A DNA stretch of 59,305 bases, counting the filler, from Fonticula-like sp. SCN 57-25 (lineage: Eukaryota), in the NCBI GenBank assembly GCA_001724245.1. It is 8 parts of 8 records of this genome, joined end to end, with 100 filler letters (N's around TTAATTAATTAA, not from the genome) between each part and the next. Parts side by side here need not be neighbours in the genome. Positions count along the whole stretch, not along the records: positions 16,902 to 23,843 come from MEDX01000407.1; 7 more parts are not named here. One strand, given 5' to 3'. A program made the position numbers and the translations under genes. Within the stretch, counting starts at the first letter, position 1; every line of letters starts with the position of its first letter. Under the pieces are notes generated by a model. It was not told where the DNA came from, did no database searches, and was given only the letters and a program-made list of their open reading frames with translations. Of this stretch, positions 76 through 30,852 are shown in pieces.

Positions 76-3000
76 TTACGTAAACGGCAGAATCCTTATC
101 CTCTTTGGCGTCGGCGGCGCACTTCCCTCGACATCGACGACACTCCCCGGCGTCCCCACCGAGATCGGCGAGCTCGCCTCTTCCGCCTCTGCCTGCTGCT
201 TCTTCCTCTTCCCCTTTGGCGACGCGGCTGCCGTTTCCTTTGTTTTCGCCTCGCCATTGACCGCCCTCTGCCTCTTTTTCTTTGCCACCGGCACTTCATC
301 CTTGCTTTCCTCGCCCTTGCGCTTGTCCGCCGCCGCCTGCTCGCTCCTCTTCACCATCTTTTCCTCGAGCTCCTTATCGTCCAATAGCAGCGACACAATC
401 TCTCTCCCTGACCTGAAATCCTCCATTCGAAACTGCCCGCCCTGAATGACCACCTTTTGAATCTCATTCTTTTGCTTGGCGCGCATTACAATCCGCTCCT
501 CAATCGACCCCTTTGTGATGAGCCGGTAAATAGTCACCTGCTTCTTTTGGCCGAGGCGGTGCACGCGGTCCATCGCCTGCTGGTCAACGGTCGGGTTCCA
601 GTCGCTCTCGAAAAAGACGACAGTGTCGGCGGCGGTCAAATTGATGCCGACGCCGCCAGCGCGCGTGCTCAGCAGGAACACAAAAATGTCATTGCGGTTC
701 TGAAAGTCGTTCACCATGTCGCGGCGGTCCTCAATCTTGGAAGAGCCGTCCAGGCGAAGGTAGCGGTAATTGCGGTAGCGCATATAGTCTTCAAGAATGT
801 CAATGATGCGCGTCATCTGGCAGTAGATCAGCACGCGATGGCCCTCATTCATGAGCTTGGGAAGAAGGCGGTCAAGGGTGAACAGCTTGCCGCTGTCATT
901 GATAAGGTCCTCTGGGTCGGGCACGGCCACAAACGAAAGTCCGCGCGGGAAAAGATTCGACTCGAAACCGCCATTGGAAACGACATCGGCGCCTTCAACG
1001 AGCCACTCGCCGCGCGCGTCCAGCGGCACAGAACGCACCGCAGCGCCCTCTGAAACCGCTCCTGAAGCATCATCATTTGAATCATTTACTGCTTTTCTGG
1101 CGGTCAATTCGATGCGGCCGTCGCGCAGGACCGACGCGAGCGGGTCGAGCGACGCCCGCAGCATGTCATTGGCGGCGGCGCGGTCGTGGCAGCGCACCTG
1201 CGGCAGCGACGCGATGGCCGCCGGCCGCACAAACGACAGGAACCGCTCGGCAAAGCAGCGCTCCTCGTCAAAGGCGCGCGCGCCGACGCGGCACAGCTCG
1301 GCGAGCGCGCCAGTGCGCTCAAAAGTAGCATTGTGACGCGCGTCCTGCCACGTCGGAACGACACACAAACGCGCGTGAGGGCGGTCATATTCGCCGCCGC
1401 TCTCGGCGGAATAGCGCGCGCGCGCCTGCGTCTTTGCCTCTGTCGCCAGATAAATCGCCCACTTTTCGAGCAGCGACGCCGCCGTTGCAATCGAAGCAGC
1501 CTCGGCGGGCGACATGTCGCACAGTCGCAGCACGGCCGGCACATTCTCCACATCCCACAAGTCGGCAACTTTCCTCGCGTCGCGCTCCCCCACAGCGAGC
1601 ATCTCGCGGTAGACGAGCTTTGGCAGGTCAAACCCGACCGGCGCGTCCGGCAAAGGCCTTATTGCCGCGTCGTCTGTCCGCAGCGCCGACGGAATGTAGC
1701 GCGACATTGGCAGCAATCTCATTGGCTCCTCTGCCTCCTTGCGCTCAAACAGCTCGGGGTGGTTGCACACCTTGCGGAACTGCATCACGAGGTTCATGAG
1801 GTGCTTTACGTTCTCGTCCGACATCAGAGACGATTTCTGGAGCAGCTCAGAGACGGAAATCTTGGCGCGCACGCCCTGGTACATGCGCCGCTGGCGGGCC
1901 GACATGACGCACGGCACGTCAATCTCAATCTTTTCGCCGAGCTCGTTCTCGACGTCCTTTTTCACGCGCCGAAGCATGAACGGCTTGAGGATCATGTGCA
2001 GGCGGCTGAGCTGGTGCTGGTCGAGCTTCTCGCCTTCGCCGGTCACGTGGCTCTCAATGTCCTTGGAGAACCACTCGCCAAACTCTTCGTGCGAGTCAAA
2101 CAGCGTCGGCATGATAAAGTGAAGCAGCGCCCACAGCTCCTGCATCGAGTTTTGAATAGGCGTGCCGGTAAGCAAAAGACGATTGCGGCAGTTGAATTTC
2201 AATAGAATGTTCCACCGCTGCGACTGCGAGCTCTTGAGCGCCTGCGCCTCATCAAGAATCATGTACTGCCAGCGGATGCGGTTAAAGTACTTTTCATCCG
2301 ACACGACCAGCTGGTAGCTCGTGATGAGCACGTGAAAGGCAGCGTCGCGGCCATACAAGTGCTTGGCATTCCAAAACTTGCGCAGCACCTTGCGGTCCTT
2401 TTGGCTGCCCCAATAAGGAACCACCTTGAAATCGGGCGTGAACTTGGTCAGTTCCTGCTGCCAGTTGTGCAGCGTCGAGACGGGCGCGACAACCAAAAAG
2501 GGGCCCCAAATGCCCTGCGTTTCGGCAATGTGCGCAAGCAAAGAAATCGACTGAACAGTCTTGCCGAGACCCATCTCGTCGGCGAGAATGCCATTGATGC
2601 CTTGCTCGTACAGATTGTTGAGCCACGAAAGGCCTTTGAGCTGGTAGTTTTTGAGGTCGCAATGCAAAAGTTTCGGCTGAGTCAGCATTGACTCTTCGCT
2701 GAGGCCGGAAGGGGCGGAAAAGTCAAGGCCGCTGTTGTCAAACTGGTCCTGGTTGAGCTTTTTGTTGCGGACGCCAGAGGCGTGGTGGCTGGAAGCTGCG
2801 GCCTCATCAAAGTTGCGGACGCGAGCGTGGTTTGCAGCGGCAGCTGAAGAGGGAAATGTCAGATCAAGAGGAACAGTGAAGGATTTCAGTCATCAATACC
2901 ACTCAACATCACTCAATACCACTCAACACCATTCAATACCACTCATTCAATACCACAAATAATCATCATCAATACCACTCTTTCAATAATACTCCAATTA

Positions 3001-4485
3001 ACGCACCGGCCTCGGCATTCTTTTGCGCCTCTGCGCGAATGGTCGCCTCGTCCATCTTGTCAAAGTCGAGCTGATTTGCCGACATTCCACCGGCGGACGA
3101 CAGCTGCGCAGCCGGCGCCAACTTGCGCTGAATAAAGTGACCATAAAGCTCCGTCTGCGTGATGAGGAAATTGAGCTTTTTCTGCTGCCGACGCGCCTCA
3201 CGAAGCTCCTCCTCTTGCTTGCGCCTCTCAAGCTCCTCCTTTTCTGCCTTCTTCCTCAAGTCACGCTCGTCGCGCTCGTTCTTCTTCCAGAACGAAAGCA
3301 TTTCGCGCATGATCTTCTTGGCCTTGAATGGCAGTTCCTTGTTCTTGCGCGCCGCGATTGTCGGGTACTTTCTCGCCTCGCGCGCGCAGTGCTGCGCAAT
3401 CTTTTTGAGGTTTCCGACCTTGTTTTGCGAGTTGACTTGCATCGCCTTTGCCGCGCGCATCACATCACGCTTGACAAAGTTGACCCACGTCTTCTTTTGC
3501 AGCTTCTCGCTCATCGTGGCGGGCACTTCGAGGCGCACCTTGAGCGACACCTGCGCGCCGCGGTTGCTGTCCTCCATGCGAGCGGCATACGCAGCGCGCT
3601 CATGCTCGCGAAGCTTTGCCCACGTGCCGCTGTACTTTACCATGCGGCGCTCGACTTGGCTCGCGTGGCGCGCATTGTCGGTTTCAAGCACTTCGACCTG
3701 CCGCCGCCACCGCTGCTTGACATAGTCAAACAGGTCGGACGGCGAGTACGGCGCAATTGGGTCGCGGTTCGTGGCGACTGTCGGCTCGCCAGTGAACAGG
3801 TCAGGCTCAACAAAGTCCTGCCAGAGGTGCTCGCGGTAGCCGACGGGCCAGTACGTGTACATGTGGGGCTCGTGGCGGCCGCCTTCGGCTGCACGCTCGG
3901 CGTCGACTTCGCGCTTGATCTCGCGGTACCAGTCGATCGGCTGCCGCCGCAAAAAGAGAACGTCGGGCTCGCCGTCTGCCGCCGACGCTGACGGCACGTC
4001 CTTTTCATTCGCCTCTGCCGCGACGCCGCCGTTCGCCATGAGGACGGGCGTCGGGTCGATCGCGGCATCGTCCTGCGATGCGCCGTGCTCCTTTTCGCGC
4101 TCGCGCTCACGTTCACGTTCGCGCTCGCGTTTCCTGCGCTTGCTCTTCTCCTGCGCAATCATGTCGTCAAGTTCGAGCTCGTGCGCCACCTGGTGATCGT
4201 CAAAGAGGCGCGATTGGGCCAGCGCGTCCGTTTGGAAAAAGTGCTCGAGCCGCGCATGGTAGTTGGGGCTGCCGGGCAAAGGGTAGCGCTCGCGGAGCCG
4301 CGCGCGCTTCTGCGCCTCAGCCGCGGCAACTTCATTGTGCTTTTGGCGCTGCTGGACCTGCTCGAGCCGACGCGATCGCCGGCCATGGAGACCGCCACTA
4401 CAGAGGGGAAGCGATTAACTTTAGCCAAACCGAGGCCAAACCAAAAGGGGAAATCGTACATGTCATCGTCCGCGAAGCCGCCCAT
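76..4485 (-). CDS. INO80: INO80 chromatin-remodelling ATPase (SNF2 family, DBINO domain), 3 exons
   Basis: DBINO motif (EELREARRQQKKLNFLITQTELYGHFI) in 2969-4279. SNF2 motifs GILADEMGLGKT, DEAQ, TGTPIQN and QAMDRVHRLGQ with a split helicase in 76-2688. GT-AG introns at ~4399-4459 and 2844-3006 join the ORFs in frame; ATG at 4485 (MGGFADDD). Confidence 0.95.
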
Positions 4486-5013
4486 GCCGCGCTATTCAAC
4501 AAAAAAAAACAAGGCGCGTTAGCCCGCCTGCAGTCAGCGAGATCGCCCACACGCACCTCTACGAGCGTCGACTGCTGCATTGGCCTCCCGTCCATATAGG
4601 ATTATATTGTATATGCACCCCGCCTCCGAGGTAGCTCCAGTGGCCTAGGCCGCCACGCCGATCAACCGCGGACGACGGGATAACCCGCTTGGGTGCAAAT
4701 GTGCGGAAGGAAAAAAGATCGAGGTCGCGCGTCAGCACCCAACAAACCCTCTCGTCGGCGACACTAAACGACGCCCTTTTCCTTTTTCCCTTTTTCCGCT
4801 TCCCACCCAAAGAGCAACGTTGGTCGGCGGCAAACTTGCCAGTTTGCACGTACAGTCATCAATTTCCATTTTTGGTAATTGGGACCGGCAAAACGCGCCA
4901 GTTTGCACGCACAGTCATCAATTGCCTTTTTCAGCTACGTGACGTCATACACAAGGCCAGAGTCCGGGGCGGATTCCGCTGTTCGCCAACTGCACCTACG
5001 ATAGAACGTCGGC

Positions 5014-6974: not shown

Positions 6975-7074
6975 NNNNNNNNNNNNNNNNNNNNNNNNNN
7001 NNNNNNNNNNNNNNNNNNTTAATTAATTAANNNNNNNNNNNNNNNNNNNNNNNNNNNNNNNNNNNNNNNNNNNN
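6975..7074. other. Artificial contig-joining spacer (N44-TTAATTAATTAA-N44)
   Basis: Identical 100-nt spacer with stops in all six frames; recurs seven times in the window. Confidence 0.98.
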
Positions 7075-16901: not shown

Positions 16902-18041
16902 TCTTCCTCGCCGTATACGGCTGGAAGTACATCAGCGCCATCGACGCATCCAGGTCAAAGGTGCGAAGCAGATCGGGCGTGATGACGTCATCAATGATAT
17001 CTCAATTGGGCTTGATGCTGATGCCGATCCGCCGCAGAGTATCGGGCTGCCGTCGGGGAGCTCGCTCATCCACTTTAAGGTGTTTTACGTGGTTGCCATG
17101 CTCGTGTTCAGCTTTAGGTTCATATTCGATTTCGTGGCGATCAGCTTTAGCTACGAAGGCGATGGCGGCGACGAACCCTTTGGCATCGTACGTACAAATG
17201 GGGGAGAAGAAGGAAGGGGAAATATGTATATATGCTTTGAATATGAAATATGGGATATTTGTGCATGTAAATTGGCCATTTTTGTGTGTAGATAAAAAAT
17301 GGACATATATTGTATTTTGCGCACATTTATCGTATGTCTTGATTCTGACCATGTTTGCATTTCAATAGGACAACAAGTGCCTTCCGGATGTCTTTAGCTT
17401 CTTTTCGCTGGTCATTTGGGAAATGGTCCCTGTCGCCATTCTCCTCTACATGTTCCGAAAGATATCCGCTCATAACTGTAATATCTATTTATATTGATTC
17501 GTATATGATACATGTTCATATGGCATGCCGTGCTCATGTGTGTCCTGATTGGTTACTTGTGATATTTATCATGTTCCTATTGGCTATTTAAACGTTTCCT
17601 TGACTCTTTTTTCGTACATTCCCGCCACGACGCCTCGCTTCGCCTACATCTTTGGCGGCGCCGCCGAGCCGCTCAACGGCAGCTACATGCCCGCACCCGG
17701 TACGCCCTTTCTTCCTTTCCCGCCACTTGTCACCCCCCGATCTCACCCCCGACTCTGCCCCTGACATAATTTCTCACATTTGCGCACTTTTTGCTTCACT
17801 TTTGCTTCACTTTTCAGGGTCAAAGTACGCGCTCGGCGGCAGCCCGTACGACGAGGCCGACAGCGGGTACGGCCCGAACGCGGTCCACCCGAGCAGGTCG
17901 CACGACGGCACGCTGGACAATAGCCTGTCGCTCGGCGCGGAGGGCGGCGGCGTCGGGGGTAGGCTGCTGAGCTATGGGTCGTCGCCGGCGTCGCCGCTGG
18001 GGGCGGGTGAGGGGGGGAGTGCAAAGAGGAGATATGAGTAG
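16902..18041 (+). CDS. Multi-pass (7TM-like) membrane protein, GPR137/THH1-TOM1-like, C-terminal part
   Basis: Spliced reading FLAVYGWKY...|...FKVFYVVAMLVFSFRFIFDFVAI...|...FSFFSLVIWEMVPVAILLYMFRKI, followed by a Ser/Gly-rich tail. The last helix resembles the E..P...L..FR pattern of this family. Confidence 0.5.
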
Positions 18042-18326
18042 GGGGGAAAGTGTATCATTAAGGAGAGGTGTATAATGTTTTGGTGCTCTTTTATATCTAT
18101 TTGCAATGTATTTACAAGCAATTCAAGGGTAATGAAAACAAGGTGAGCAAATTGACAGGTTGTCTTCAGATAGAATGAATGCAGTCTGGTCCACAAAACT
18201 GCCATTTTTGAGTCGACTTCTACTATATCTACTGTTCATGTTGTGAATGTATCTTTCTCCTTCTCTATTCAAAAACACCAAACAAAACGACTATGTACAA
18301 GCCAAATATGTTACTTCCCGGATACC

Positions 18327-18672
18327 TCACCGCGATCTGGCGGCCGGGATGGCGGATGCCGCACCCGGCGCCGGCTCGTGCACCAGCTTGGCGCCGCGCT
18401 CCACAAAGTCGGACCACGCAAGCAGCATGGACGTGTGCGCGTCGAGCGACGCGACAAGCGCATTGGCGCTCTCCACATTCTTGGTCACCGTCGAGTGAAG
18501 CACCGTCAGGTCTGACGCAAGCTAATGCCGTGAAATGAAAAACAAATCAGGAAAACAACATTCAAAAAGACAAGAATAGCAAAATAGCATTATTAAATTC
18601 GTGTCAGTGAATGTGAATAAGGTCAAAAATAGGCGAGGAACGCACACGCTCGAGGTCGCGCGCGTCCGCCAT
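18327..18672 (-). CDS. Small (~73 aa) two-exon coiled-coil protein, possibly a DASH/Dam1-complex subunit
   Basis: ATG at 18672, MADARDLER|GTGCGT...CATTAG|LASDLTVLHSTVTKNVESANALVASLDAHTSMLLAWSDFVERG...RSR*. GC-rich coding-like exons flank an AT-rich intron. Confidence 0.55.
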
Positions 18673-18769
18673 GCCGCCGACAATTTGCGCGCCAACAATT
18701 AAATCACGTGACGTTCGCGCGCTTTTTTCCGTTTTGTTGCGCCCTTTGCCGTCGATCGCGCGGCGGCAT

Positions 18770-19775
18770 CGGCCGGTTCCTTGCCGCTTCCCCGCGCTCT
18801 GCTTTCCCTTTTCCCTCTCTTTATGTCCCTCGCTCTGTGTGGTTCCCCTTTCCGCGCTCCCCGCGCCGGCCTAAAGATGGTCAGCTCGCGTCGTGTGCGA
18901 GGAGGGCCAGCTCTAACCCTAAGGCATATCTAATGAGGCGAGCATGGCAAAGATGATGGCAATGTTGTGGTCGGTTTCCGCCCTCTCCCCTTCTCTCCCC
19001 TTCCCCTTTCACCCGAAGGCGCGGCGGGGGCGAGTCGGGGCGGGGGCGTCTGCTTTTGTTTGGTTCCGGTTGAGGCGCCTTTCTTTGGTTTTCATGGCGG
19101 GTTCCGACAGTGCCCCGCGCACGCAAAAACAAAAACCCAAAAACCTCAAATGAAAGGCATGCCCTGCGGACGGCGCGCGGGTCTGTGCTGGCCGGGGGGA
19201 TCGCGCGGATGTGGGGGGATGGATCGAGTGTGGGATCGGGCCTGGCATGGCATGGGGATGTTGCCGCGGCAGGACACTGGCTGACGTCATCAGCATCATT
19301 TCCCTTTCGACCTATTTATGTTCAAAAACGGCGCCCACGGCCGCTTCAGCGCCCTTTTCTTTCCTTTCGGGGCTTCTCCCACGCGCCTTCCCACGCCCGG
19401 CGGGGTCTGTGAGCGCGCCGCCCTTTCCGCGCACACCGCCCCGGCGCATCGCCCCCGCGGGCCCGGCGGCCGACGCAGGGGCCTCGCGCCACGCGGCTGA
19501 AGCGGCGCGCGAGTGAGAGGCCCGGCCTCGCGCCCCTGCCCGCCGCCGGCCGAGCGGGAGGCAGCGCCGGGGGGGCGGGAAGGGCGGTGCGTATACGCGC
19601 CCGTCGGACAGGGAGGGGTAGGGAAGGATGGTGTGTGGCCACGTGGGTGCGCGGGAAGGGTCGGGGAGGGACGGCGGGCGGCTCGCGTGACGAGAAAGGC
19701 GCGCGGCCGCTGCCCGCGGTGATGGCCATGTGGCCGGTGAGCCGTCGGGCGGCGGTTGTGCGTAATTCTGATGAG
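18770..19775 (+). ncRNA. Candidate telomerase RNA (TER)
   Basis: Template CTAACCCTAA at 18913-18922 with a hairpin just 5' (18878-18909). Crossing helices and U-rich/A-rich tracts at 19051-19158. Enclosing helix 18851-18870/19187-19209. Three-way junction 19475-19539 with a GAGG-CCCGG-CCTC hairpin. No convincing ORF. Ends are estimates. Confidence 0.65.
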
Positions 19776-19860
19776 CCATATCGGATACTTGTGAGCGTAT
19801 ATGTTTCATGTGTATATTTGGCAGTAGACTGTGTCCATAGAAGGATAGGGCACTGCGTAC

Positions 19861-19968
19861 TGATAAGGATCTGATAAGGATGTGATAAGGGACCGTGATA
19901 TGGTACATGTGGACCGGTAAGGTACCACTAATATGGAAGTGTGTACTGATAAGGCACCACTGATATGG
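19861..19968. repeat. Degenerate TGATA(A/T)GG repeat cluster
   Basis: TGATAAGG at 19861, 19872, 19883 and 19947; TGATATGG at 19896 and 19961. Confidence 0.8.
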
Positions 19969-20223
19969 TATAGTGACCACATGAGGATATTTTTGATACT
20001 GTGTGGCTATGGAAAGCCAAAGGTGAGATCGATTGAAAGGCAAAGGCACAAAGAAAATTGCGTAAAGCGAAACTAAAAGTTTAAAGCATATCTCATATTG
20101 AATATTAACGTAAAGATGCACATATAAAATGATTGATACAGCCGAGCAAATACGCTCATATAGTAAAACACAAACACCCACACTGGGCAGCGCGAAAGAG
20201 CAACAAAAGTGTACAAAAAATGT

Positions 20224-21045
20224 CTATGAATTGACGGCCGCGCGCTTCTGCGGCCTGTGCAGCGACGTCGCGAGCACGGACGCCGCGGCCATGTCGGCCT
20301 CGAGCTCGTCCTGCGCGCGCTTGCGGTTCGCGAGCGTCGCCAGCAGCGCCTTCTTTGTCTCTGTCCTGCTGCTCGACTGAGCGGCGGCGGTCGGCTGCGG
20401 CGCATAAAACATGGGCTGCTGCTGCTGCACGAGGCCATAGTGCATGTGCGCGTACTGCGGCGCCACGTCGGTGTAGAGCGCCGCCATCTGCTGCTGCTGC
20501 TGTGGCGCAGCAGGGAGCAGCTGCGTGGCCGTCGGCGATGCGCGCTTGAGGTGATCGACCTGCGACTGCAGCTCGTCCTTTTGCCGCTTCAGGCACTCAA
20601 TGTACTTTAGCGCAAAGTTGAGCCGCCGCTTAACGTCCTTTTCCTCGTCAACGAGCGCGGCAGCAGCAGCAGCGCTGATCGCCGACGAGCCGCCGGCCGA
20701 CATGGCGCGGTCGCTGCCCGACGACCGCTGCTGCGATCCCAGCGAGCGGATGTGATCCACCGCCTTGCGCAGGATCTCTGCCTTGCTGTGGCACGGCTGG
20801 CACGACGGGACGACGCTCCGGAGCGACTCAAAGCCGCCATTGATGTTGGCGCGGCGCTTTTTCTCCGAAGCGAGATGCGCGGCAGAGCGCGCTTCGCTGC
20901 GCGACACGCGGTCAATCGCGGCATCATCGTCGGGAAGAGGGGAAACAGAGCGCGAATAAGAGTCGACAGATGAAGAAGAGGGAGAGAGCGTCGCGTCGTG
21001 CGCGAGCGCGCCCTCGACAACGCTCAGCAGGCCCGTAAGTGACAT
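20224..21045 (-). CDS. bHLH(-Zip) transcription factor, Mlx/Max/Mxd network-like
   Basis: AHLASEKKRRANINGGFESLRSVVPSC...SKAEILRKAVDHIRSL shows the H-x3-E-x2-RR basic region of E-box binders. A heptad segment follows. Likely ATG at 21045 (MSLTGLL). Confidence 0.88.
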   Translation of the reverse strand: MSLTGLLSVVEGALAHDATLSPSSSSVDSYSRSVSPLPDDDAAIDRVSRSEARSAAHLASEKKRRANINGGFESLRSVVPSCQPCHSKAEILRKAVDHIRSLGSQQRSSGSDRAMSAGGSSAISAAAAAALVDEEKDVKRRLNFALKYIECLKRQKDELQSQVDHLKRASPTATQLLPAAPQQQQQMAALYTDVAPQYAHMHYGLVQQQQPMFYAPQPTAAAQSSSRTETKKALLATLANRKRAQDELEADMAAASVLATSLHRPQKRAAVNS

Positions 21046-21120
21046 TCCCACAGCAATGCGCAGCCGAGACGACAGCACAATGACCCCGCAGCTCAGCTCA
21101 AAAGTGGTATTCTTGCATGC

Positions 21121-21173
21121 AGCCAATCAGACACGCGCAATGGCGTCGCCTTATGCAAGCTGGCCAATCAGAC
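21121..21173. promoter_or_regulatory. Tandem CCAAT boxes upstream of the bHLH gene
   Basis: GCCAATCAGAC occurs twice (~21122 and ~21163), about 80-125 nt upstream of the ATG. Confidence 0.55.
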
Positions 21174-21791
21174 GCGAGTGATGCTATTTGAAGGCATCGG
21201 GCACGAGCTGCTGATTCTTCCTAAAAAGGAAATTGGGCGTGATGGTAAATACGCGCAAACTGCAAACTGACCCGATCGACGAGCGCTGACAAACAGAAGT
21301 CAATGGCGAGACTTTTGGTAAAGGAAGAGCAAGTCAACGACTATCGAAAAAAGAACAAAAGTGGAAAGTGGATCATTAAAAGGACTACATAAAGGACGAA
21401 TAAAGGGAATTAAATATTCATATATACGTCCACAATTGAACGAATTTTGTAATATTTATACTGGAACGTCCATTTGAACCCTCATTTTCTCAATGACCAT
21501 TGCTTCAGTCCCCCTCAATTTCAACAATCCAAACTGCCAATATGTGTTCGTATCGTGCAACATAGTATATCTATTTAAAATTCGCGGTAAACAACTACAG
21601 GGAAAGAATCCCGTGGCTACAAAAACAGTGACATGGATGGAAAGTGGTATGCAAATTTGCCCCCCTGCTCTCTACAAGCGGGCGACGCCAAAAGTAACAC
21701 AAGGCAAAACAACAACGCAAAAGCGAAAACAGCAGCTTATGATGAGCCATATGGAGAAGAGAACTGGAGAAGAGTTTGCACGTCGGCCAGA

Positions 21792-22643
21792 TCACTTCTT
21801 GGGCGGTGCTACCCCGTGGTGACCCGGGTACGCCTGCGCGTACGACGGCATGTTTGAGCTGTACTGCGACGGCACTATAAACAATTGTCAGCAACACACG
21901 ATAATAAAAAAGAAAAAGTGGCGTGTGCCAAGCGCACCTCCCATGTAGGCCGGGGGGATCCCGGTCATCGGGTTCTGGTAGTTGCCGTACTGCGGCTGGT
22001 AGGGCAGGCTGCCCCCCATCGAGTACGAGTTGGGCATGTGAACCTGGTCGTGGTGGCCGCCCATGACGGGGAGCATCTGCTGCGCCGGGTTCGGCGGCAT
22101 CGGCTCGGCCTGCGATTCGTACATGCGCGTGGGCTGCTGCATCGCCGGCGCGTCGGACGAGTTGAGGCATGCCTGGATCAGGTTCTTGCCCTCGGGCTTG
22201 GTGATGAGCGGCTGCAGCTTGGGCGTCGCGAACGTGTAGACGTGGCCGGTCTCGGAGGCGACGAGCAAAAGGACCTGCGTGCCGGTGAGCGTGCTGAGCT
22301 CGTACGCCTTCTTCATGATGCCGGCCTTGCGCTTGCTGAACGTGATGTGGCGGCGGCTCTTGTCCTCAATAAACTCAATGTTGATCTTGCGGCGGCCGCT
22401 CTTCTTCTCGCCCTTGACGGCGGGGTCGGCCGTCTCGCTCTCATCGTCGTCGTCATCGTCGCTGCTGTCGCCCTTTGCACGGCGCTTGGATCCCGTGCTG
22501 GGCGCTGACTGGGCAGCCGCGCTCGAGGCAGCGCCGCCGCGCGAGGCAACAGCGCCGCCGCTCACAACGGCGCCCTCACCGAGACCGGCGGCATCACCAC
22601 CGACATTGTCCATAACACCTTCCTTGCTATCCTTCTGCTCCAT
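21792..22643 (-). CDS. SRF: SRF/Mcm1-type MADS-box transcription factor, 2 exons
   Basis: GRRKINIEFIEDKSRRHITFSKRKAGIMKKAYELSTLTGTQVLLLVASETGHVYTFATPKLQP. Intron ~21875-21937; final exon ends APPKK*. Confidence 0.95.
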
Positions 22644-23117
22644 GACGCGTATCCCAAATGACCGTTGGGACAAAAAACAAACCTAGCGGGCGAGGCGAGA
22701 TGAGGAAACGAGGCCGAAAAAAAAGTCGACGACAAAGGCTATGCATGGTTCATGATGGTGAGACACACACACCCAATGCCCGGCGGCATGTTGCACTGGT
22801 ACGCACCTATACCGGATACGGATCGCACTCCCCCTCAAATAGGCCTCTTGCTTATTCGGGCGGCGGGTCTGAGCCGAGAAAGGAGGGCGGAATCCCTTTT
22901 TCGGGCGAACACGGTGGTCGGGGGGACAAATATGCAGCCCCCCGTTGAATTTGGTATTCGCCGATCGAGAACCGGGGGAGGTCACGCAAGGCTACCCTTA
23001 ATCGTACCAACCGTTTTTGGATAGGATTATCGCATGCGACATTTCCTATTACCTTTTCGGGAATGCGGCAGAGGGAAATTTGGCGCCAAGCTCGGCATTG
23101 CGGCGCGCCACTGGGCG

Positions 23118-23843
23118 ATGGCAACGTTTGATGGGCGGATCCGCGAGTACCCGGGGATCGCCGTGGACAATATGGGCGGCGACGCGCAGCTGCTCTATCT
23201 TTTGTCGCACGTGCACGCGGATCACATCAGGGGCCTGAGCGGGTTTGCCGGCAGCAGGATCTACTGCTCGGCTGCGACCCGCACCCTGCTGCTCGGGACG
23301 CGCGTCGATGGCAAGCGCGTGTGGGCTCATCTTGAAGGCGTTCTCACCGCTTTGGCCGAGGACGTTCCTCACCTCCTCCCCGTCGGCACCGAGACCGTTT
23401 CCGTGACGCTACTTCCCGCCGCGCACTGCCTCGGCAGCGTCATGTTTCTGATCCGCGGCAGCCGTGGCACGGTGCTTCACACGGGCGACATGCGCGCCGA
23501 GGCGTGGTTCTGCCGCGGGATCGGCAACACTGTCCTCTCCACCCTGCGCGACATCGACACTGTCTACCTCGACACGACATTTTGCAGCGCGCGCGCTCGG
23601 CATCTCCCCACCCGCAAGGACGCGATCGCCGACCTCGTCGCGCATCTCGCCATCACCCACGCCGACAAGGAAAAGCAAAAATGCACGCCGGTTTACATTG
23701 CAACGGGCGGAACTGTCAACTATGAAGACATTTTCAGAGCGCTTTGCCTCCATTTCAAACAGCGCGTCCATGTGGACAGCGTGAAGCGGTACGCCGGCGT
23801 CCTCTTTGACGACGGCGAGCCAGTCGCCGACTACATCACAGAC
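23118..23843 (+). CDS. DCLRE1C: Artemis/SNM1-family metallo-beta-lactamase/beta-CASP nuclease, 5' part
   Basis: MATFDGRIREYPGIAVD (Artemis-type N-terminus), LSHVHADHIRGL, AAHCLGSVMF, LHTGDMR, VYLDTTF. Truncated at the spacer. Confidence 0.88.
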
Positions 23844-29094: not shown

Positions 29095-29751
29095 GCATGT
29101 GGCATTTTGCACAAATAAATAGTATGATAACTGTATGACATTGATGGTTGCATGGCCACGAAGCACAAAAAGACACAACTTAAATTGGAAGTTTACAAGG
29201 ACAATTATTGCACTTGGCATAGGTAAATTGCTCTATTGGATGCTTTGCATTGGCCATGAAGCATGAAAAAGTGTAGTTTTAGTGCCCTTTTGCCATGCAT
29301 TTCGTAGCCAATTTACGTCGACAATGACAGTCAGTTTTAGTTTTCCTTTTGAATTACTTTTACTTGCATCTTCTATGGTTCAAGCCGCTGTCCCCGCACG
29401 GATGCGGTGGGGATTGGGGGATCAGACGGGAACGGCGCCAATGCGTAACAAGTATGGCTGACGCCTTTCCACCATGGAGGCGGATATAACCCATTCATCA
29501 TGTCTTCTGAACCAGAAGGATCTAAAGAAGCCCGGCCGAAAGTGGCGATTTTCGATGCCATTCAAGATTCGTCAGCATGAAATTGTGGGATGCGTTTGCA
29601 TTGGGGATTTGTCAGAAAGGTCTGGACCCCCTTGATTTTTGTTGAAAATTTGCACTGTTTTGGTCAGTTTTAGTTGTGATTACGCACTACTCGAAAGGCA
29701 CCCCGTGATCGTTTCCGTTGCGAATCGGCAACTTCATCTTACGCTTTCGTC

Positions 29752-30852
29752 ATGTTTCCCCGCGTGCTTCGCTCCACTGGTACGCCGTCTCTTACCCCTT
29801 CCCTCATGCCCCCTTCATATGATCTCTTACGATTACCCCATTTGTCAGCCCCGGTGCTTCGCCTGAGCGCGACCCGCGTTGCAACTCCCTCGATCCTTCG
29901 TGCGGCCTCCTCGACGGCCGCCCCGCCCTCGCGCAGCGGCCCCGGCATGGGCACCGTCCTTCTTGCCGGCGCGCTCGTCGGCGGTGGCTACGTCGCGTAC
30001 GTCCAGCGCGACTCCCTCCCTGATCTCCTGAGCGGCCTCACCGGCCCCCGCCGCACCAACTGGGATGCCGTGCGCAGCGAGATCGCCGACGTGCTCGACA
30101 ACAACGACTATGAGGACGGCTCGTACGGCCCCGTTGTCGTCCGCCTCGCGTGGCACTCGTCCGGCACCTACGACAAGAACACCAAGACTGGCGGATCGAA
30201 CGGCGCTCGCATGCGCTTCGCCAAGGAGGGCGGCTGGGGCGCCAACGCCGGCCTCAAGATCGCGCGCGACGTGCTCGAGCCTATCAAGGCGCGCCACCCC
30301 GAGGTCTCGTACTCTGATCTGTGGACGCTCGCCGGCGCCGTCGCGATCGAGGAGCTCGGCGGCCCTGTGATCCCGTGGCGCCCCGGCCGCAAGGACGCCG
30401 TCGACGGCAAGGAAACCGTGCCTGACGGCCGCCTGCCCGACGCCGCTCAGGGCGCTCGCCACGTGCGCGACATTTTTTACCGCATGGGCTTTGACGACCG
30501 CGAGATCACCGCGCTCATTGGCGCGCACTCGCTCGGCAAGACGCACAGGAATCGCAGCGGGTTCGAGGGCCCGTGGACGCGCACGCCCACCCAATTTTCA
30601 AACGATTTTTACAAAGAGCTGCTCGGCAACACGTGGACCATCAAAAAGTGGGACGGCCCCGAGCAGTTTGAGGACAAGACCGGCGAGCTGATGATGCTGC
30701 CGGCCGACATGGCCTTCCTTTTTGACCCCGAGTTCAAGCAGTACGTCGAGATGTACGCCAACGACCAGGACATGTTTTTCAAGGATTTTGCCGCCGCATA
30801 CAGCAAGCTGCTCGAGCTTGGCGTCGATTTTGGAGATGACTCAAAGAACTAG
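29752..30852 (+). CDS. CCP1: Cytochrome c peroxidase (class I heme peroxidase) with mitochondrial presequence and TM segment
   Basis: [56 protein letters not shown]. Arg/Ser-rich N-terminus plus a hydrophobic anchor. Confidence 0.92.

Follow-up and report, generated by a model that had tools for sequence, protein, structure and literature searches.

We analyzed a window of 59,305 bases of eukaryotic DNA assembled from a metagenome (Fonticula-like sp. SCN 57-25). It contains a GC-rich, non-coding block, located approximately at positions 18773 to 19763 of the plus strand, that carries a telomere-like motif among extensively paired elements. We consider it reasonably likely that this block is the host's telomerase RNA (TR) gene, about 1 kb in length and of the long, flexible-arm type. 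A TR at this place had been put forward in an original prediction made from the sequence alone, and all of the strings named there were found where it had located them. The positions of the individual elements, along with those of other genes in the window, are provided in Table 1.

A GC-rich non-coding block

The GC content of the window is 50 to 61% per 2 kb. Exons are GC-rich, with a GC content at third codon positions (GC3) of 0.77 in eight open reading frames (ORFs), seven of which have Pfam support, and introns and spacers are AT-rich. Trained on these eight ORFs, a codon-usage score takes positive values over GC-rich coding sequence; throughout 18651-19850 it is negative, despite a GC content of 0.60 to 0.79 in this region. 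Of 563 segments of 300 nt, 235 had a GC content of at least 0.58, and the coding score was below 0 in 40 of these 235. Eleven of the 40 form a single block of 1300 nt (18601-19900), which is the largest in the window, the next being 600 and 500 nt long. None of the nine ORFs of this block had a Pfam match at E <= 0.1, and no second copy of the block was found within the window. Taken together, the codon score, the lack of Pfam-matched ORFs, and the lack of a second copy indicate that the candidate occupies an island of ~1 kb that is GC-rich, non-coding, and unique. This island is bounded by a putative divergent promoter region, which contains TTAAAT (18709-14), CACGTGAC, and a T6 run (18733-38), and by the AT-rich 3' flank of a bHLH gene. 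Four plus-strand copies of the GATA-factor-type site TGATAAGG (19861-68, 19872-79, 19883-90, and 19947-54) lie in the likewise AT-rich spacer that separates the candidate RNA from the 3' end of this bHLH gene.

Table 1. Elements of the candidate RNA, RNA cover, and other genes of the window (MFE, minimum free energy fold)
Feature	Position	Strand	Remarks
Intergenic region, putative divergent promoter	18673-18772		Between ATG 18672 and start of the structured RNA
Enclosing helix, C/U-rich 5' arm	18773-18870	+	MFE pairs 18773-18868 with 19171-19280
RNA contig of run X5, 213 nt, depth 3.9	18774-18969	Not given by contig	196 nt aligned, 2 differences (transitions)
Template-adjacent stem-loop, candidate P1.1-type template boundary element	18878-18909	+	Ends 3 nt 5' of the template
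Candidate template CUAACCCUAA	18913-18922	+	One TTAGGG repeat plus 4 alignment nucleotides
C/U-rich versus G-rich hairpin between template and U/A-rich region	18979-19050	+	MFE, centroid
U-tract/U-tract/A-tract region, potential pseudoknot with U.A-U triples	19052-19163	+	
Enclosing helix, G-rich 3' arm	19165-19280	+	MFE, per-arm shuffles
Rod-like arm, ~400 nt	19285-19692	+	z -5.30, 0/100 shuffles as good
Hinge AGAAAG	19693-98	+	
Terminal hairpin, 18-bp stem	19699-19763	+	Stem 19699-716/19746-63; last element of the GC-rich block
Small two-exon gene, divergent from candidate RNA	18327-18672	-	ATG 18672
Membrane-protein-like gene, multi-exon	Ends near 18041	+	
bHLH gene	Stop at 20224	-	
SRF-type MADS gene		-	
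Metallo-beta-lactamase-fold gene	From 23025	+	
INO80 ATPase	76-4414	-	

Pairing, structural elements, and RNA cover

On the plus strand, the MFE was -237.7 kcal/mol for 18770-19280 (z -2.30, 5 of 100 shuffles as good) and -310.9 kcal/mol for 19281-19790 (z -5.30, 0 of 100); the corresponding values on the minus strand were -198.7 kcal/mol (z -0.86, 22 of 100) and -268.1 kcal/mol (z -2.97, 0 of 100). Since whole-sequence shuffles ignore local composition, each arm was also shuffled separately. The arms of the core (18770-18875 with 19165-19285) then reached z -5.88 on the plus strand, where none of 200 shuffles was as good, and z -3.77 on the minus strand (0 of 120), and the arms of the distal part (19300-19505 with 19506-19705) reached z -5.08 (0 of 200) and z -2.71 (1 of 120), respectively. 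These values show that the long-range pairing is real and that, at the RNA level, the plus strand pairs more strongly. As a separate matter, the difference in MFE between plus and minus strands was considered as proof of the strand and rejected as non-specific, since differences of 40-60 kcal/mol are common (sd, i.e., standard deviation, 23 across the window).

The core arms form an imperfect helix of approximately 100 bp, present in both the MFE and the centroid, that encloses the template, a 70-nt hairpin, and the U/A-rich region; a helix enclosing the template-pseudoknot core, as expected of a TR, is thus found (z -5.9, 0 of 200 per-arm shuffles). The two complementarities on which the enclosing helix had been predicted (18851-70/19187-209 and 18778-87/19266-74) are genuine, but the inner register is not favored: the MFE keeps only the outer one (18773-87/19266-80), and forcing the inner register together with the predicted boundary hairpin costs 15.4 kcal/mol (-222.3 versus -237.7). 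This hairpin consists of TGGTC/GGCCA (18878-82/18905-09) and CTCGCG/TGCGAG (18885-90/18896-901); its place was given correctly, and it is stable on its own at -14.8 kcal/mol. A competing helix (18880-89/18938-48 plus 18893-98/18924-29) beats it and likewise flanks the template. In the full fold, 18907-16 and 18921-23 are mostly unpaired, and 18917-20 pair weakly with 18903-06. In the hairpin downstream of the template (18979-19050), the alignment of the arms comprises 23 Watson-Crick pairs, 2 G.U, and 0 A.C.

The candidate template, CTAACCCTAA at 18913-18922 of the plus strand, is the sole site in the window, on either strand, with any (CCCTAA)n 8-mer or longer. The original prediction gave it as identical at 10 of 11 nt to the human template. 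In shuffled windows, the exact 9-mer occurred in 4 of 100 and a 12-mer with up to 2 mismatches in 79 of 100. From a mean of 0.15 10-mers per shuffled window, the chance of such a 10-mer on the plus strand of this ~1.1 kb amounts, by arithmetic, to about 1%.

The U-rich tracts (19053-19092) and A-rich tracts (19125-19143) of the predicted pseudoknot are present, 130-230 nt downstream of the template. Two crossing helices, TTGAGG/CCTCAA and GCCTTTC/GAAAGGC, had been proposed to form it; the complementarity of both is genuine, but their opposite ends are joined by linkers of only 1 nt (19076) and 2 nt (19150-51), and by geometric reasoning they therefore cannot form together. Their pair probabilities in the ensemble are ~0.99 for GCCUUUC/GAAAGGC and ~0.003 for UUGAGG/CCUCAA. 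The register had been called uncertain; enumeration yielded many alternative models, with a canonical-order one among several. In the best model of canonical order, PK1 is formed by CGCC 19076-79 with GGCG 19096-99, leaving the loop UUUCUUUGG (19080-88), and PK2 by UUUUCAU 19089-95 with AUGAAAG 19150-56, with a junction of 0 nt and a downstream loop of 50 nt that carries the A-tracts. Residues U19080-82 of this model could form U.A-U triples with A19153-55/U19090-92. A nested helix, GGC-GCCUUUC 19074-83 with GAAAGGC-AU-GCC 19152-63, competes with the pseudoknot.

The tip of the rod is a three-way junction in the MFE, composed of a P5-like stem (19475-82/19532-39), a P6-like hairpin (19483-19513), and a P6.1-like stem (19517-29). 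The latter has the sequence GAGG-CCCGG-CCUC, that is, a stem of 4-5 bp and the loop CCCGG. A near-match to P6.1 at 19741, GCCG-UCGGG-CGGC, lies buried within the terminal hairpin. The 3' strand of this hairpin ends in GUGCGU (19758-63), which is also the donor of the neighboring gene's intron and is not preceded by an Sm site. Further downstream, an Sm-like AUAUUUUUGA (19987-96) is followed by a small 5-bp stem-loop and GUGAGA (20023-28). In fungal TRs processed by the spliceosome, the mature 3' end has an Sm site with a 5' splice site shortly after it. GUGCGU and AUAUUUUUGA/GUGAGA are possible 3' end signals of fungal style that may easily have arisen by chance in AT-rich sequence. Apart from these elements, the rod contains one copy (19421-19445) of a 25-nt direct repeat (CCUUUCCGCGC...CCGGC), whose other copy (18846-18870) lies in the 5' arm of the enclosing helix, with 88% identity between them.

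RNA evidence was drawn from run X5, a soil metatranscriptome with a share of 0.13 that was chosen by a search with this same stretch. Eight of its contigs touched 16950-23800 (6.85 kb) when aligned to it, and one was long and near-identical; 17 letters of this contig, beyond 18774, are unaligned. The remaining seven pieces measure 32-69 nt, and six of them are less than 90% alike. The only real RNA-library cover in the 6.85 kb thus consists of the 196 nt that hold the boundary stem and the template. RNA libraries can contain DNA, and stretches that X5 left uncovered were not counted as findings. The match starts at 18774, next to the first pair of the predicted enclosing helix at 18773, and this near-coincidence is suggestive.

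A candidate telomerase RNA and its alternatives

If the block encodes a TR, the elements described above would act together as follows. (i) The long helix between the C/U-rich arm (18773-18870) and the G-rich arm (19165-19280) would close a core of ~300 nt. (ii) Within this core, CUAACCCUAA would be kept single-stranded, and TERT would copy it into TTAGGG repeats. (iii) The stem just 5' of the template, which could be either the hairpin at 18878-18909 or the competing helix 18880-98/18924-48, would halt copying at the template end. (iv) The U- and A-tracts of 19052-19163 would form a triple-helix pseudoknot beside the active site. (v) The 400-nt arm, with the three-way junction at its tip (19475-19539), may serve as a second TERT-binding element. 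At ~1 kb, the candidate would have about half the length of the TR of Neurospora crassa.

The comparison with known TRs made here is limited to those parts of the cited papers on which we draw. Fungal and vertebrate TRs share a core of template, boundary element, core-enclosing helices, pseudoknot, and three-way junction; 4-5 uridines of the upstream loop of the pseudoknot form triples, and P6.1, located in the three-way junction, has a 4-bp stem and an NUNGN loop (PMC3592445). For animals, a template-adjacent stem, named P1.1, has been inferred as the original form of the boundary element (Logeswaran et al. 2020, PMC8480181), and P6.1 is described as older than the animal-fungal split and as lost twice (PMC8480181). 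TRs of the RNA polymerase III (Pol III) type are found in Diaphoretickes and some insects, and those of RNA polymerase II (Pol II) types in animals and yeasts (PMC12133305). The order of elements in the block, namely, enclosing helix, template-adjacent stem, template, U/A-rich region, closing strand, and distal three-way junction, matches that of the fungal/animal core as described in these sources. (i) Several features recall the TR of filamentous ascomycetes (N. crassa type; Qi et al. 2012, PMC3592445): a candidate template of TTAGGG type with a possible boundary element adjoining it, core-enclosing helices by which the template and the putative pseudoknot would be brought close to each other, U-rich and A-rich tracts that could supply the upstream loop and the strand of a triple-helix pseudoknot, and a long RNA whose predicted three-way junction lies distal to the template. 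Unlike the ascomycete TR, as far as described there, it has CCCGG in place of the NUNGN loop of P6.1, and its fungal-type 3' end signals are leads only. (ii) With the animal H/ACA TR (PMC8480181) it has in common a candidate boundary stem adjacent to the template, a putative template-pseudoknot domain closed by a helix, and a 3' half in which a hinge joins two hairpins, the first of them tipped by a three-way junction. It differs from the animal TR of that account in that the hinge fails the ANANNA consensus, no ACA follows the last hairpin, and the P6.1-like loop lacks the conserved U residues; it is also two to three times the length of vertebrate TRs (human 451 and mouse 397 nt; PMC12133305). 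(iii) The template and pseudoknot, of which the block has candidates, and the closing stem are likewise features of the Pol III-type TRs of plants, ciliates, and other Diaphoretickes (PMC12133305). These TRs, in the part of that paper used, are short and have a type-3 promoter (upstream sequence element [USE] and TATA box), and a T-run serves as terminator in this type, whereas the candidate measures ~1 kb and contains U4 runs in its core (19054-57 and 19089-92).

A number of observations weigh against a TR. (i) The template motif taken alone is not significant, since 44 of 400 dinucleotide-shuffled windows contained a (CCCTAA)n 10-mer of any register and strand (mean 0.15 per window). In addition, the motif was scored against TTAGGG, which may not be the telomere repeat of the host. 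(ii) The boundary hairpin has a pair probability of 0.001-0.002 in the full ensemble, and the pseudoknot as originally drawn is sterically implausible. (iii) A strict P6.1, i.e., a 4-bp stem with an NUNGN loop beside P6, as in the opisthokont TRs with CR4/5 (vertebrates, sponges, and filamentous fungi), had no match in 18740-20230. (iv) Neither a box H, the hinge AGAAAG failing ANANNA at its last position, nor an ACA after the terminal hairpin 19699-19763, which H/ACA-type TRs of animals have 3 nt from the 3' end, nor an Sm site adjoining the end of the block was found. (v) Searches of Rfam returned no telomerase family at gathering score, nor any at E <= 10 in 17500-21500 or 18740-19800. (vi) A search for relatives in which covariation or conservation of the template could be seen, made with the pattern RGCTCTAACCCTAAGGCR, led to 20 loci in metagenome contigs, none of which (0 of 20) shares more than 16-23 nt with the window. 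(vii) After adjustment of the MFE for GC content, 19251-19750 is the top outlier at z -2.8 only, and the coding region of the bHLH gene reaches -2.65. The second folding outlier of the window, 4501-5000 (z -2.7), is located just upstream of the INO80 ORFs, with -200.6 kcal/mol on the minus strand versus -161.3 kcal/mol on the plus strand. (viii) G.U appositions outnumber A.C ones in the arms (17:1 and 11:5). This excess, tried as a sign of RNA-level selection, was rejected, since shuffled arms gave a similar skew (6.2:1.0 and 9.8:5.6); it is largely compositional and stems from the A-poor, C/U-rich 5' arm. (ix) Run X5 was found using the very stretch in question, and its contig gives neither strand nor ends nor level. 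The missing P6.1 and end signals hold back our confidence in a TR. Three other Rfam matches, sX6 (E 6.2), Pab91 (E 3), and SMAD5-AS1_2 (E 7.2), were far below the gathering score and were taken as chance.

For a genome of tens of Mb with one TR gene, we put the prior that a 59-kb window contains this gene at about one to three in a thousand. A chance 10-mer is expected in ~0.11-0.15 of windows, and at ~1% on this block and strand, which places a TR and chance at rough parity. A TR is then favored because the block is unique, structured, apparently expressed, and non-coding, because the motif lies in an enclosed loop beside a stem, and because U/A tracts follow downstream. The original prediction of a ~1-kb plus-strand TR is thus backed by the non-coding block, the RNA contig, the plus-strand pairing, and the P1.1-like stem, but not by Rfam, P6.1, or the pseudoknot in the form first proposed.

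The block might instead specify a different structured non-coding RNA transcribed from the plus strand, such as a long non-coding RNA or a small-RNA precursor, in which the telomere-like 10-mer arose by chance; we regard this as possible but not probable. The frequency of the 10-mer in the shuffles (44 of 400) is within chance for the window, the pseudoknot models are many and unconstrained, and the lack of an Rfam telomerase match, of a canonical P6.1, and of H/ACA or Sm end signals would fit such an RNA. On the other hand, by the arithmetic given above, a chance motif on the plus strand of this particular block is expected at only ~1%, and the motif is found in the enclosed loop and not in the helix arms, beside a stem and upstream of the U/A tracts. 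Furthermore, highly structured nuclear RNAs of ~1 kb are known in very few other classes, which we also counted against this explanation.

That the block is non-functional GC-rich intergenic DNA, for example, a decaying inverted repeat or low-complexity C/T versus G tracts, with an RNA contig derived from background or carried-over DNA, appears unlikely. None of 200 per-arm shuffles was as good as either domain on the plus strand, and the pairing was weaker on the minus strand, a pattern that speaks for RNA-level pairing. Carry-over of DNA at a depth of 3.9 should, moreover, also have covered the neighboring 6.6 kb in X5, and the absence of such cover is weak evidence against it. These points are set against the promiscuous pairing of C/U-rich with G-rich tracts, a Watson-Crick complementarity of domain 1 at the DNA level that exceeds shuffles only to a modest degree (3 of 300 as good), and the fact that other parts of the window fold about equally well for their GC content. 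Finally, the strandless X5 contig could represent the minus strand, as an extended 5' leader or a transcript from upstream of the small gene with ATG 18672, which starts ~100 nt from the covered stretch, but this is very improbable, since the match stops at 18774 with no continuation into the small gene, no minus-strand GT donor is present at 18774, and the pairing statistics favor the plus strand.

Returning to a TR as the favored reading, a more specific form of it is that the RNA belongs to a deep-branching eukaryote near the animal-fungal split and combines an animal-like P1.1-type stem, a fungal-like kilobase scaffold, and a distal three-way junction with a P6.1-like loop that lacks the conserved uridines with an end that is neither H/ACA nor of the classical Sm/5' splice-site kind. 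We put this forward tentatively and hold the full combination to be doubtful; if true, it would add a third route by which a Pol II telomerase RNA can be built and matured. TRs evolve fast, and the TR of each new lineage has to be found almost from scratch. The core shared by fungal and animal TRs has been deduced, in the parts of the papers cited, from ascomycetes and animals (PMC3592445, PMC8480181). Among the papers searched, none was found on a TR of early-diverging fungi; the single mention found for a zygomycete, Lichtheimia, is of an unconfirmed, ciliate-like TR candidate (PMC4133162). If real, the candidate would therefore be a TR from a lineage without described TRs, within the literature searched. 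A TR validated in an organism that branches off outside the fungi and animals sampled would make it possible to say whether the P1.1-type stem, P6.1, and the manner in which the 3' end is formed are ancestral.

Neighboring genes and the host

Within the small minus-strand gene that diverges from the candidate RNA, exon 1 comprises nine codons and exon 2 (18327-18521) encodes 64 residues; the intron carries GTGCGT as its donor and CTGAT as a branch-like site. The gene had no significant Pfam match, the best one (E 0.049) falling below the cutoff. A search of a protein atlas with an ORF that lacks a Pfam match gave matches below 0.9 only.

The INO80 ORF was used to place the host. A public assembly contains one copy of it at 100%; this copy aside, no relative exceeded 53% identity over at least half of the length, local identities were 53-66% at best, and identities near 50% were found alike in Mucoromycota, chytrids, and vertebrates. 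In a FastTree tree of 27 rows, i.e., the query and 26 sequences hand-picked from 120 listed, with one partial plant sequence as the sole non-opisthokont row, the query had a long branch and fell to the fungal side of animals (support 89), the sampled fungi forming a clade (97%) that does not include it. We take the host to be a deep-branching eukaryote that may lie close to the base of the opisthokonts on their fungal side. Its original description as belonging to a lineage with largely uncharacterized TRs is plausible, although its placement is not settled.

A cytochrome-c/ascorbate-type peroxidase ORF (29680-30852, plus strand) has public relatives at 93% (P0121) and 84% (P0122) identity, which indicates that related species exist in public assemblies. 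The next matches of this ORF, at 60-69%, are a mixture of chytrid, glomeromycete, Balamuthia, and green-algal sequences. In genome contigs, the pattern RGCTCTAACCCTAAGGCR was found at 17 loci, all with bacterial titles. The best DNA match to the window is a bioreactor metagenome that is flagged as its possible source. Near-identical pieces of the window occur in aquatic, soil, "fungus," and fuel-cell metagenomes, with small shares and with alignments made for runs X2-X5 alone; among these, X3 and X4, also with small shares, contain short identical pieces of the same organism. On the basis of these small shares, the organism seems to be widespread in engineered and natural waters and in soils.

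Seven pairs of runs of 44 N, with 12 bases between the members of a pair, are located at 6975, 16802, 23844, 30877, 37902, 45326, and 52317 (spanning to 52416). They recur approximately every 7 kb, with one interval of ~9.8 kb, cut several ORFs, and resemble masking or scaffolding and not biology.

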